From positions 96,001 to 160,000 of IMG/VR virus record IMGVR_UViG_3300021400_000138: a DNA stretch of 64,000 bases; one strand, written 5' to 3'. Position numbers and translations under genes: made by a program. Position 1 is the stretch's first letter. Every line of letters begins with the position of its first letter. This stretch comes from a virus. Its lineage: Duplodnaviria; Caudoviricetes. Below the pieces are notes generated by a model. That model had not been told where the DNA came from and did no database searches. It worked only from the letters and a program-made list of their open reading frames with translations. Shown piece by piece: positions 41,601 to 64,000 of this stretch.

Positions 41601-44600
41601 AAGTCCAGAGAATAGTCCATTAGACTTTCCGTCTTTTCCAAAATTCAAAACTCCAAGACCAAATATTTGTCCTACGGTTCCAACAATACCAGAAAGTAGT
41701 ACCTTGAATGCACCGCCTTTATCTAGTAGTGTTGTAAATGCTCCAACAAGACCTGTCGCTCCATCCAGGAATATTTTTATCCAGTCGCTGTCAATTGATA
41801 TTGCGGCGAGTTCCTGGAGGCGATTTTGAAGTTTTGCAAGTTTGCCGTCGATTGATTCGAGGTATTTATCGAGTTCTTGTTGAGCGGAACCAGCATAATC
41901 ATTTTCAGCTGCTTCCTTTACTTGTTCTAATACGTCTCCGTTAAGTAAAATTGAAGAAGCAATATTCATTTTGTTACGTATTAATATACGAATAGGTCAT
42001 TTCTGCCTATTTCTGCATTTTCCCTCTTAGATTATATATGCAGATCAGATCATACCTTTACCATATTTTGGTACCCCCATACGTTTAATTGTTACCTTTT
42101 AAACTATGATCGTTACGGGCTTAGTTTTACCCACGGTATTTTCCATCTCTGGAATTCACCGTTTTGAGAGGGTTTAAATATTATATATTTCTATATAATG
42201 GAGCAATATTACTTTTCACTCCTATTTTTTCCACGTTGTATTTACAAGGGCCACAACTCCTTGCGTGTTTATAAACACCTTATACTTTCATATAAGACTA
42301 GACTATTTCTTCATCTCCACCATTATGTGCTGAGAGTACACCTTTTCGATTTAATGGATTTTCACCAACGCCTTTGTGATTGCGCCCTACTCCTATTGAC
42401 AAAATGTCCACCTCTGTGGGATAGTCGTTGAACCTTTATCCTCGTCTTTACGTTAGAATACTTGGCTGCATGAACAGCGATTTCTCTCCAAATAGAAGAG
42501 TAGTACTTAGGCTTTTAACCATATACCATCCTTACGTTGTTTCTACTTTCGTACCATCATATTGTGATTTCTCCAATATTGTGGTGTAAGGCTTTACGCA
42601 TTACCTGCAATTAGATGTAACTTATCATGCATATTTCTATACATGTAGGCCATTATTTAGCCAAAGCTTCTACCAAAGCATTTGCTCGGTTCTAACCTGT
42701 TTGTTTATCAGTTTCTTGTATCTCTTTATACACCTTAGAAATATCTAATAATATGTCATATGTACTTCTAAGATTTCCATTATTGTCTAATACAGACACA
42801 CCTTTAAAATTATTGCTTGCAACAGCAGTATAATCTCTGATCAATTGATCGGTTTTTGACTTTGTACGTACTACGAAATCGTCAATGTCTTCGCCAAGTT
42901 CCGCGATTTCATTCTTGGCTTCTTCTGTCAATCTGTTACTTTCGGTGAGCCACACCTACTGACTATTAATAAATAATAGCGGCTAGTCATTTCTGGCTAA
43001 CTCTCACATTTCATAAATTGTGGAATATATTGTGAGTTCGGACTGTGTATTTACCTTATAAAAAGGAACAACTTAACCTATTATGTTGCCACAATAGACA
43101 TCGCAGTCTCTACGGATTTATATAATATATTATACATATTCATAACGATAACCTTTAATTGTTTTTCTAATACCAGTTACCACTTCATAAATTTTAAAAG
43201 CAATAGTGCCGTTTTCTTTTGCAGCCTATAGCATATTATCATAGGCCGCCACACTCTTATTATTTAAATCCAATTTTCTAACCGGATAATAAAATTTTTC
43301 TAATCTATTTTCAGGTATTATATAATCTCCAGATTCATATAAATCTTTTGGTACCCAATAATGTTCATTAGAATAATATCCCTTCGTATAAATTGCAGAG
43401 ATTATTCCGCTAATATCAATGGAATTATCTCTCGCAGCATCCGCATATGAACCATATTCTTTTTGATAATTCCGATGCATATCTAACATAACTATTGGTC
43501 TACGAGTACTTTTAATATAATCATCAGGATAATACAATTTGTTTTCATGAAGAGCATCATATATCCTATGCGCATTTATGCATAATTCGTCAGCTATTAC
43601 CTGGACTTTCATTCCAGAATTTAATTTATTCTATATATCTACAAGATTTAGTTTTTTGTTATAATCCATTTTGACCCATGATGGAATCTCGTTGATATCT
43701 GGAAAGAAGTATTGAATATATTTTAAAACCGGAACGCCATCAATCTCGTAGTCATAAAATTCATATCCTCGATTTATCCAGTATTGTTTTTTAATATTAT
43801 CTCGAACTTTCTATCTTTTAAATCTATGCCATTGTCCTTGTACTTCAATAGCTATTTTTAACCTATGGTTCACAATATCTGTCGGCATAACCTTTCCAGT
43901 ATTTGGATTAACGCAAGATGGATCTTCTTCTATTGAATCAGGATAATAATGTTTATAAATTTGTTTTAATACAAGAGCATGTAACGATTCTAAAGTATCA
44001 TCACAATTAGAACATGAAATTCCTTTATGCTATTCATCGTTTCTTCTTAAATTATATAGTGATTTCTTTATTATTTTACCACATCTTGTACATTTAAACT
44101 CAAGTATGGAATCTTTGGTAATAATATCTTCTTGATTTGAAATACATTTAAAATTTCCATTAAATCGTATTTCTAAGTATTTATTTATATTATAAAGTAT
44201 GTATGGATTTTTTATTGCAAACCATATGGGATTTTTCTTTTTATCATTATTTATATAATTTTCTGCTTTAACAGATGCGTAATATTGCCCATCACTTACT
44301 GTTACCAGCTGTTTTACAGATTTAAAATCATGCTCTTTGGTAATTAATATTAATCCAAATTTTTCTAAATTGTTTTTAAGTTTATAATACTTTTCCATTT
44401 TTTCTCCTTTATAAATTGTTATTTGCATAATATAACTTTCCTCGACTTTGGCATTTCCACTATGCTCTTAGTCGATATAGTTGTTTATAAAAAATATATT
44501 ACTATATTTCCGGGCTTCCTTCCTAGACCCGCAATCCTTAAACTAATAGTACGTACCCCTGCACTTGTCTTACTCATATCTTGAGTAATTAAATTCCCCG

Positions 44601-47600
44601 ATGTGAGGAGACCCAACGTTTCATCTAAACTATTATTCTGTGTCATTAATACAGCCGCAGCATTCTGAAGACCCTATGCGAGTTCATCAGTACTGACGGC
44701 AAAATTGTTTGATCTGTTACTTTCAGCAATATGCCTACTAACTATCTTACCAAGATAGCGGATAGGACGTTAATCCTATCTCTGCATCTTTATATATACA
44801 TGCAGTCCAGACTGTATATTACATCCATAAAGGATGGATAACTTCATAATAGCAATTACTCACTATTACCCGCAGTCGTTACGGTATAAATAATAATAAT
44901 ATTATATTATAATCATTTTTACCTCGGTGTTGTCCAATTTAGGATGTTCACCGATATAGTTATCAAGTTGTGCAATATGCACAAAAACCAATTTTAATTT
45001 TCATTAAAATATAGGCAACATTCACCTACCAAATTGAGTTTGTCTACGATAGAATTTGGATCTATATCTTTATAAGCTTGCGTAGCTGATACAAGCGATT
45101 GTGTAGCATCATTTATATTCTCAAATTCAGATACATTTAACAACTTCGTAGAAAGAGCAGCCATTTCTTTTGCTTCAGAGAAAGATTTTCCTAGCCTTAA
45201 CCAGTCAGCAGTAGAATCTTGTATGGCTTTTGCAGTCGTTCCTAATTGATCCGCAATATCAAACGAATCAAACTGATACTTCTGTAAACTGGAAAGCGTC
45301 TCGTCACTAACCTTTCGCATTTCAGTCAAAGCTGTATCAAGTTCTCTTACAACAGTTACACCCTGTCTGAAGATGCCAATTACTTGATAAAAACTAGCAA
45401 ACGACAACAAGTATCTTCCAAGGTTACCAAAGGATCCCTTCAACTTCTCTGCAAAACTTTTTCCAGTATTTCCAGCATCTGCTGCAGCGGCAGCGATCTT
45501 TTTAAACGTATTTACTAAGTTATCACCCTCAGCCGCACTTATCTATTCGCTACTAGCTAATCTGTCATATATAGGTTTAATCTCTGCTATGGCTTGCTTC
45601 GCTTTTGAATTATTTGCCATCCATTCAGCCATGGACTTAGCCATATTGGATCGATGATTTTGATCCATCCACTGAAATGCTCCACCTGTATTTACGTTTT
45701 TAATAGCATTATCTATTTCTTTAAAACCAGCTTTGACTTCGTTTACACTCTGTTGATAATCTCCGTTCCAATCAATAGAATCTATCGTTCTTTGTAAATT
45801 ATGATACATTTCTGTTATTCTATTTACTTCATCCGCGTATGCCGCTGGCCTATCACTTTCATCTCCAAGATTATCTACCTATATTCCAACGGATTTATAG
45901 GTTCTATCCAACGCATCTTGTATAACCTGAGTCTAAATTTCTTTTAATTCCGCATCTAAAGATTCTGCCATATCCTGGCTCATATCCTTAAATACACCAG
46001 TTGATTTTCCTGCGTCATCTACGGCGCCTTGGTATTCCTTGATTTTCTTTCTCGCATCTTCAAAGTATTTAGTATATTTGTTAAGCCATTCCTATTCGCT
46101 AATTGTTACCTTCCCGTTACTTTTCTTTTCGAGGAGTGTATAATATTTGGTTGCCAAAGCTATAAGATTGTTATATCCTTTTTCAACTGTATCAAAACCT
46201 TCTGGCGTAATATTCGCGGCACGATTTCCTGCATCTGAAATTCTCCCACGTTGTGTTGCCAATTCATCCGCAGTAAATTTTGTAGAACCAGAACTTACTT
46301 TTTCTTCAAGAGTCTATATTGCCTTTTCAGCTTCATCTGCTTTTCTCTTTACATCTGCAAGACGAGTAGTAAGAGACCGTGTAACATTTTCTCCGTGACT
46401 TTGACGTTCTGACAACGCCTCAAGTTTTTCCACGGCAACAATATAATCATCAATCGCTTTTGTCGCATCCTTTATTTCTTTTGTTTCTTGAGAATCAACC
46501 TTTTTAGCTTGTTGTTCAGATTCCCTCTGCGTTTTTCGTTCTGCTCTTTTCCTTTCATTTTCCGCATCTCTATCAGCTTTTCTTTGTGCGGAATCCGCCT
46601 TGTCTTGGTCTTTCTTTTCATCAGATAACTTTCGTTTTCTCTCAATTCTTTCTAATGTATAATCGAGACCATCAAGCGGAGCCAAAGCCCTTTTTTCTAT
46701 GTCTTTCGCCATCTTTTCGTTAAATAATGGATTTTCATAAAGGGCATCGGTTAATTCATATATTTTATCAGCTAATTTATCTATTTGATCAAGATCTCCT
46801 TCTAGCATCTTTCCAGCTGCCACATCTTTTTTCAAGTCTATATATTGTTTTACTACTTCAGATAATTCCCGAAGCCTTGCTTCTTTTTCCTCAATGTTTC
46901 TATCTTTAGCTTCTGATTCACGCATACTTTGTTCATACTCTTTTTGATCCGCAGCCATTTGATCAAACACCTTTTTCTACTTTTTCGCCTGCGCCTCTAT
47001 ATCTTTTTCTGAAGCCTAATTAACATAATATAAATCGGTATTTGTTTTCTATTCTTCTTGATCCAAAAGGGTACTCTCGGCAGCTTTCCTCGCTCTGTCA
47101 AATGCCTACGCTAATTCATCAAGCTATTCCCGTGTTAAATTTGATTTACCAACAAATTGTTCAAGACCAGTTATAGATTCAAATATTTGTTTTGATAATT
47201 TTTCTATAGATTTTGGAGTTTCAGCTTTTGATAATTCATCTATATTATCTTTTACTTTTTTAATATTATCAGCAACGTTGGAATAAAGCGTATTCGTCTG
47301 CGTAACTGTACCATTAGGTCTAAGCGTAACATTTCTTTTTGTACCACCCATATCAGTGATATCAAATGTGTCCGTTATCTTTCCCTCTTTATTTATCTCT
47401 GATTTTTTTCTTATAGAAATGATATTATTCATCTCTATTCCGATTTTACGCAACTTTTCAATAAGCGCATCATATTCCTTGGAACCAGGCATAAATTCCA
47501 TTTCATCCGATCCAAACATACCACGAATTTCTTCTGCAACCTATTGTACTTTGGCCTGTCTTACTGTATCTACTGTTTTATCTATCTCGGCCTGTGGTCT

Positions 47601-63660: not shown

Positions 63661-63772
63661 ACTTCTACCTCCTTAGAGTTGAATCTCCTGATATAGTTAA
63701 ACGCAATGCGGAGAAGCCAGGAGGAGCTTCTCCATATAAGAGTGATCAAGTTCTTATATTTATTGCGTTTGC

Positions 63773-63865
63773 TAAGCCCGCTGGAATTCGAATCCAGATT
63801 ACCTCCTTCAGAGGGATATCACGCTTTTAGAGAGCGGTGCACTAGTCCAGTTGTGCTACGGGCCT
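63773..63865 (-). tRNA. amber suppressor tRNA, anticodon CUA, long variable arm
   Basis: acceptor AGGCCCG/CGGGCTT; D arm GCAC/GTGC with GG; anticodon stem CGCT/AGCG with loop CT-CTA-AA (63828-63830); T arm CTGGA-TTCGAAT-TCCAG; no encoded CCA. Confidence 0.88.
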
Positions 63866-64000
63866 ATATATTGGACAGTAAAAAATACCGTCCTTAAAAT
63901 AAAAAGAGCAGATAATCCACTCTCAAATTACAAATAATGTTTATAAAAATAATCGTTTATCATATCTACTACTTTATCCTCAAGATGATATTCTTTAATC

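Follow-up and report, generated by a model that had tools for sequence, protein, structure and literature searches.

An apparent terminal A in place of omega-G in a group I intron of a phage tape-measure gene

Introduction

A terminal guanosine, omega-G, is a near-universal feature of group I introns, although it is not strictly defining for them, given the published exceptions. Classical mutant work leads one to expect that a bare RNA in which omega is changed from G to A, with an unchanged guanosine-binding pocket, should ligate its exons very poorly. In the Tetrahymena intron, G414A and mutants of the G264:C311 guanosine site are said to be strongly impaired in exon ligation. The Cbu.L1917 intron of Coxiella reportedly has A at omega.

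One of the two self-splicing introns of Coxiella burnetii 23S rRNA "lacks the canonical Omega G", in the words of a paper's title (Raghavan et al. 2007, via PMC3428280). The mitochondrial ND5-717 intron of the sea anemone Stichodactyla haddoni has omega-A and is removed exactly in vivo, as judged from 21 junction reads (PMC8146996). Its authors suggest that omega-A suppresses hydrolysis at the 3′ site and circularisation (PMC8146996).

The intron described here, intron E, shares its terminal A with ND5-717. ND5-717, in contrast, belongs to an unrelated mitochondrial lineage, is vertically inherited and carries a giant P8 insertion with genes. The A of ND5-717 is reported for an intron that is obligatory and inherited vertically, whereas that of intron E is found in a single copy among G-ending relatives. 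In a fixed omega-A lineage of the ND5-717 type, the non-G omega would be kept in relatives; for intron E, this was found in 0 of 17. The Coxiella intron resembles intron E as a group I intron of the bacterial world without the canonical terminal G. It is self-splicing and lies in rRNA, while intron E lies in a phage protein gene. Tetrahymena G414A, a laboratory mutant, carries the same substitution at this functional position, and its G-C pocket is likewise unchanged; the change in intron E is in a natural, apparently viable genome.

Phage introns of subgroup IA, such as those in td, nrdB and nrdD of T4 and in orf142 of Staphylococcus phage Twort, have a P7.1-type insertion and an extended P9 region, as intron E does. 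They and the family of intron E also have ORFs in the P6 loop of relatives, and several introns per gene separated by very short exons. Intron E differs from them in its lack of a match to Rfam Intron_gpI, in the number of its hairpins (a single one between P7 and P3′ and four following P7) and in its terminal A.

Omega-A is thus already known from published introns, and intron E, as read from one base of one assembly, would be a further rare case. An earlier note on this DNA called omega-A very rare, which is fair; precedents have nonetheless been published for Cbu.L1917 of Coxiella and ND5-717 of sea anemones.

Results and Discussion

The host gene

The window, the 64,000-nt stretch of DNA analysed, comprises bases 96001-160000 of an IMG/VR record of 185,390 bp, which has direct terminal repeats and is graded complete. 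Introns E, D, C and B split a gene on its minus strand between 45023 and 41967. The gene stays open only when TAG is decoded as an amino acid. Its long reading frames, of 2313 codons with 30 in-frame TAGs and of 4354 codons with 32, are free of frameshifts.

The PhageMin_Tail profile (PF10145) matched the exons in collinear order: profile positions 4-83 at the end of exon 1 (26.7 bits), 87-144 in exon 2 (15.9 bits) and 151-193 in exon 3 (14.9 bits), each score being by itself below the 33.2-bit cut-off. These collinear matches identify the gene, at the level of prediction, as that of the tape-measure protein. Homologues with 43-75% identity have PF10145.

The entire tape-measure frame occupies 28905-51935 (minus strand), with exons of 2313, 61, 90, about 5 and 4354 codons. 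It encodes more than 6800 residues in total and contains more than 60 in-frame TAGs and at least five group I introns. The in-frame TAG of exon 2 aligns with a Gln of the homologues. A tRNA with the anticodon CUA, unusually long at 96 nt and called tRNA-Pyl by ARAGORN, lies at 63771-63866 (minus strand). It is presumably an amber suppressor that decodes TAG, as Gln to judge by the homologues.

Structure of intron E

Intron E runs from 45023 to 44710 on the minus strand, as the earlier note had placed it. It is 314 nt long and has no ORF. The 5′ exon terminates in UUG GUA GGU at 45024, and the 3′ exon opens with AAC AAU UUU at 44709. The minimum free energy of the intron is -90.5 kcal/mol (z = -6.2), and folding of the single sequence yields P3 and local hairpins.

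A search with the Rfam model for group I introns (RF00028, Intron_gpI) gave no match, either at the gathering score or at E<=10. The model detects none of the copies of this intron family in the window, and the missing match is a limit of the model. The structure was therefore derived comparatively by hand and tested by covariation (Table 1). Relatives were gathered with an 18-base element (J8/7 and the 3′ strand of P7), which gave 30 loci in IMG/VR phages, mostly of ~150-220 kb. Further contigs with the family were reached through protein homologues, and one metagenome contig, L053, through a pattern scan.

Table 1. Features of intron E and its flanking exons (window coordinates).
Feature	Position	Strand	Remarks
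5′ exon end GUAGGU, codons Val-Gly (P1 5′ strand)	45024..45029	-	U45024 in U.G pair at 5′ splice site
P10 5′ strand UGUU	45017..45020	-	partner is first four bases of 3′ exon
Internal guide sequence GCCUAU (P1 3′ strand)	45011..45016	-	
P2 hairpin, GAAA loop	45010-44991	-	
P2.1 hairpin	44984-44968	-	
P3 5′ strand AUAACU	44958..44963	-	partner 44843-44838; paired in 6/6 sequences; A-U to G-C in L023
P4 UCGGUG/CACCGA, around P5	44924..44954	-	P4 completely compensated in L053
P6 GGUA...UACC, AU-rich loop	44883..44923	-	P6 loop occupied by homing-endonuclease ORFs in orthologues
P7 5′ strand A(C)GACUG	44873..44879	-	bulged C44878; G44877 is guanosine-binding G
P7.1 hairpin, between P7 and P3′	44847..44868	-	compensatory change in 8/8 pairs; subgroup IA-type insertion
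P3 3′ strand AGUUAU	44838..44843	-	
P8 hairpin CAUCC/GGAUG	44822..44836	-	
J8/7 UAAUAUA and P7 3′ strand CAGUCU	44809..44821	-	C44810 pairs with G44877
P9.0 5′ strand GA	44806..44807	-	
P9, P9.1, P9.2 and P9.3 hairpins	44725..44805	-	
Near-invariant tail GAAAGUAACAGA	44713..44724	-	holds G44714, only nearby G, candidate cryptic 3′ site
P9.0 3′ strand UC	44711..44712	-	
Omega, last intron nucleotide	44710	-	A in intron E, G in 17/17 relatives
Exon 2, 61 codons, begins NNFAVSTDELAQGL	44527..44709	-	one in-frame TAG

For the 3′ domain (P7, P7.1, P8, P9.0 and P9-P9.3), compared in 18 distinct members, 92.3% of the cells were paired and 35 of 39 pairs showed compensatory change. None of 500 shuffles was as good, and slid controls were far off. 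For the 5′ domain with the P3/P7 pseudoknot (P3-P8 including P7.1), compared in six full-length members without an ORF, 99.5% of the cells were paired, with one unpaired cell in the entire set, and 20 of 37 pairs were compensatory. All 39 pairs of the 3′ domain were intact in intron E itself. Covariation in the family thus bore out the identification as a group I intron, which the earlier note had made from this sequence.

P7 has the form of a closing pair, a bulged nucleotide and then a G-C and an A-U pair, both invariant (18/18). The guanosine-binding pair of intron E, G44877-C44810, follows the bulged C44878 and is intact, as had been supposed. A compensating change of this pocket from G-C to A-U was looked for in P7 and was absent, the pair being G-C in all 18 members.

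The group I features found in intron E include P1 with its U.G pair, the P3-P8 core, the G-C pair of P7, P9.0 and P10. P1 is GUAGGU/GCCUAU (6 bp, -6.6 kcal/mol) and P10 is UGUU/AACA. At the place of the near-universal terminal omega-G, intron E has A44710. Judged from sequence comparison, intron E is a real, undamaged group I intron, with all checked core helices intact. P7.1 and the extended P9 region give it an architecture that looks IA-like; the interval between P7 and P3′ holds one well-supported hairpin, as against two in the P7.1/P7.2 insertion of subgroup IA (IA2-like).

The tail GAAAGUAACAG ahead of P9.0 is almost invariant throughout the family, and its GUAAC is also found as J6/7 (window 44713-44724 and 44878-44884, minus strand). 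No pairing partner was seen for the tail. Pairing of its GUAAC with the 3′ strand of P3 was considered and dropped, as no covariation was found in L023. The tail may be a tertiary element or an element for docking of the 3′ site.

Position of omega

Intron E ends in GUAACAGAUCA at 44710. The endings of its sister introns with which the earlier note had compared it are real: GUAACAGAUUG at 42929 for intron D and GUAACAAAAUG at 41967 for intron B. In the alignment of 18 family members, the terminal column, A44710 in intron E, is G in every one of the 17 distinct relatives. When an nhmmer profile was made from the 17 relatives without intron E, intron E aligned to positions 1-183 of its 185 positions with no terminal gap; the consensus terminal G (position 185) therefore corresponds to A44710.

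The 2-bp P9.0 joins the two bases just 5′ of P9 to the two just 5′ of omega. It is GA/UC in intron E and L053, AA/UU in most members, AU/AU in intron B and UU/AA in L011a, so that each of the two base pairs has undergone compensatory change within the family. In L004, where the tail is 4 nt longer, P9.0 is UU/AA as aligned by eye. Of all the relatives, L053 has the 3′ end closest to that of intron E: its junction, GAAAGUAACAGAUCG↓AACAAUUUUGC (the arrow marks the splice junction), differs from the 27-nt junction of intron E solely at omega, which is G in L053, and matches it at the other 26 positions.

As aligned, A44710 occupies the exact structural position of the omega-G of the relatives. 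The relatives strongly conserve this position, and A44710 is a deviation from it rather than a chance difference, read from a single base of a single assembly. None of the 17 relatives, same-site orthologues included, had omega-A. A targeted scan of IMG/VR for non-G omega at the VG↓NN site (GAAAGTAACAG-NNN-H-AAYAAYT) gave 16 matches, all of them in ordinary coding DNA. Within this set of relatives, omega-A looks like a lineage-specific point difference.

In several members ending in GAAUG (L009:7166-7346, L025:4488-4675, L012, L015 and L018), P9.0 is imperfect, reading GA/AU or AA/AU, and GCAAC replaces the invariant GUAAC in two of these members. The present structural model therefore does not account completely for the 3′ site rules of the family.

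Exon junction and reading frame

The placement of the junction after A44710 by P1, P10 and the protein motif VG↓NNF, as proposed in the earlier note, held up. The 5′ site GUAGGU↓ with the guide GCCUA is common to four orthologues at the same position of the gene (L002, L005, L006 and L053), and the omega-G orthologues with complete sequence (L006 and L053) restore the frame. Intronless homologues read [VI]GNN[FY] here. Among ten intronless homologues that span the site, nine have GNN[FY] or GNKF, and one (P0024) has VSNNF. A dozen intron-bearing homologues all break directly after the Gly codon.

With the 5′ site at U45024, a cut after A44710 alone restores the frame, and the product is LVG↓NNFAVSTDEL. 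The junction expected from splicing at omega-A is GUAGGU↓AACAAUUUU. All the nearby Gs (44714, 44700, 44697 and 44693) give a frameshift with this 5′ site; when G44714 is used, a TGA is reached nine codons on. There is no in-frame G within ~17 nt of the junction for this 5′ site. Ribosomal frameshifting after use of G44714 was considered and set aside as contrived, no slippery site being evident before the TGA nine codons later.

Explanations for the terminal A

We consider it rather probable that a real G-to-A change at omega is tolerated by the phage in an intact group I intron. A G-to-A transition at omega would have arisen in the lineage of intron E. The first step, in which exogenous G attacks after U45024, would be unaffected. 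P9.0 (GA/UC, with the G-C pair adjoining omega) and P10 (UGUU/AACA) would be the main determinants of the 3′ splice site in the second step. Omega-A would bind poorly to the unchanged G-C pocket, so that exon ligation would probably be slower and more error-prone. One possible error would be the use of G44714, leading to a frameshifted, truncated product. Splicing would still make enough tape-measure protein, because few copies are needed per virion. The completeness of the genome and its long frames without frameshifts speak for good assembly quality and, thereby, for a real omega-A. So do the precedents, ND5-717 with its exact splicing in vivo and the Coxiella 23S intron. Counting against it, omega-A is read from one base in one metagenome assembly, and an intact intron would be equally expected if the true base were G. 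The G of all 17 relatives and the uncompensated G-C pocket also count against it, as does the very poor exon ligation that the classical mutants would predict for a bare RNA of this kind. An unusually strong P10 as a compensation for omega-A was considered and dropped: that of intron E is average in a family where 7 bp can be counted by eye in L004 and hardly any in L053.

An artefact is unlikely, and has several observations in its favour. The true base would be G, with the A coming from an error of the assembly consensus, from a minority variant or from damaged template (C-to-T on the plus strand). The 27-nt junction is the same as in L053 except for omega, the rest of intron E is canonical and intact, all 17 relatives have G, and a transition is the commonest type of error and damage. 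However, consensus substitution errors are rare per base, and the chance of such a rare error exactly at omega is small when compared with the documented frequency of natural non-G omega. The uninterrupted frame of more than 20 kb around the site also indicates good quality, although this is mainly a test for indels. The neighbouring intron C has a one-base non-canonical junction of its own, and two independent errors at splice sites are unlikely. No near-identical genome was found among INPHARED phages, in IMG/VR (by protein and by exact 26-mer), in a set of 5.8 billion proteins or in metagenome contigs. The best match in the protein set had 75% identity, and the one match in the metagenome contigs was L053, a distant orthologue.

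We give a still lower probability to the reading that a phage ribozyme with a canonical pocket routinely ligates after a terminal A, its 3′ site being set by P9.0 and P10, and that such handicapped introns dose the tail protein. The 3′ site would then perhaps also depend on the invariant GAAAGUAACAG tail or on a helper protein. If this reading were true, routine ligation after a terminal A would, together with intron C, mean that the tape-measure gene is expressed through "handicapped" introns, whether deliberately or tolerably.

It is very improbable that the allele is dead, with G-to-A blocking ligation and a non-functional tape-measure gene in a defective genome or a very recently mutated lineage. 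The canonical, uncompensated G-C pocket does predict a severe defect in the second step, going by mutant studies, and the change is seen in no relatives. However, a phage population that replicates cannot have a defective tail gene as its consensus, and the record, with its terminal repeats, represents a complete genome. Moreover, neither the intron nor the very long exons show decay, and natural omega-A introns do splice.

A shifted pair of splice sites, with the 5′ site at U45028 and omega at G44714, is hardly to be expected. It would remove 45027-44714. Use of this upstream G had been named as an alternative in the earlier note, and the product is indeed in frame (LVSNNF, Leu-Val-Ser-Asn-Asn-Phe). 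The homologue P0024 naturally has VSNNF, and the exon contains two copies of GGU (UUGGUAGGU), either of which could pair with the guide GCC. However, P1 would be reduced to 3 bp (-2.4 kcal/mol, against 6 bp and -6.6 for the main site), P10 would require an offset of 4 nt, and the main 5′ site, which is kept in four orthologues, would be abandoned. By P9.0 covariation and the family alignment, omega lies 4 nt further downstream than G44714. Most of the relatives that demonstrably splice further downstream have this internal G (GUAACAG) as well.

Nor is it any more credible that omega-A was selected as a throttle to limit or time tape-measure production, as the earlier note had inferred: the gene has at least five introns, a neighbouring one also with a non-canonical junction, few copies of the protein are needed, and a benefit of omega-A through less 3′ splice-site hydrolysis and circularisation has been proposed for ND5-717 (PMC8146996), but the change is confined to intron E (0 of 17 relatives, same-site orthologues included), which speaks against a designed throttle, the targeted IMG/VR scan gave chance matches only, and the sequence bears no sign of selection for omega-A.

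Under the preferred explanation, a real and tolerated change, intron E adds a case in a phage structural gene to the short list of introns with a non-G omega. If the base is real, it is a natural experiment: two members of one ribozyme family share the pocket and the 3′ junction, and differ in having G (L053) or A (intron E) at omega. This pair would suit the question of what share omega-G has in the second step of an intron whose P9.0 and P10 are intact. It would also bear on how far phages tolerate inefficient splicing in structural genes of low copy number.

The intron family and neighbouring introns

The family of intron E is mobile, and in large phages it repeatedly occupies the Val-Gly↓Asn-Asn position within the PhageMin_Tail domain of tape-measure genes. 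At least 30 IMG/VR records, mostly of 150-220 kb, carry the family element GAUGUAAUAUAYAGUCUG in a tape-measure gene. The loci L004-L036, L053 and window 41967-45023 represent several sites in PhageMin_Tail, among them VG↓NN and G↓TEEA. Members occur with or without endonuclease ORFs in P6, and Rfam Intron_gpI misses the family entirely. For annotation, this means that an intron family missed by Rfam splits tape-measure genes in many uncultured phages of 150-220 kb. A by-product of the present analysis is a structure supported by covariation for this widespread family of tape-measure introns.

On the minus strand, intron C (42658 to 42234) is followed by a stretch of 16 nt (42233 to 42218) and then by intron B. 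Homology requires only 15 nt between introns C and B (EALA-GKNRS-NIASSIL compared with RLVAGVRQGNVLAAFL of L053). This leaves two possibilities: a 5′ cut after C42660, a single base ahead of the U.G pair, or an intron with U42233 as its last nucleotide. Intron C is thus a second case of a one-base non-canonical junction in this tape-measure gene.

The P6 loop of intron D contains an ORF (43130-44428, minus strand) of 432 aa with four in-frame TAGs. It had only a weak, NUMOD-like match to I-HmuI (E = 0.011). Orthologous introns of other phages have different ORFs in its place.
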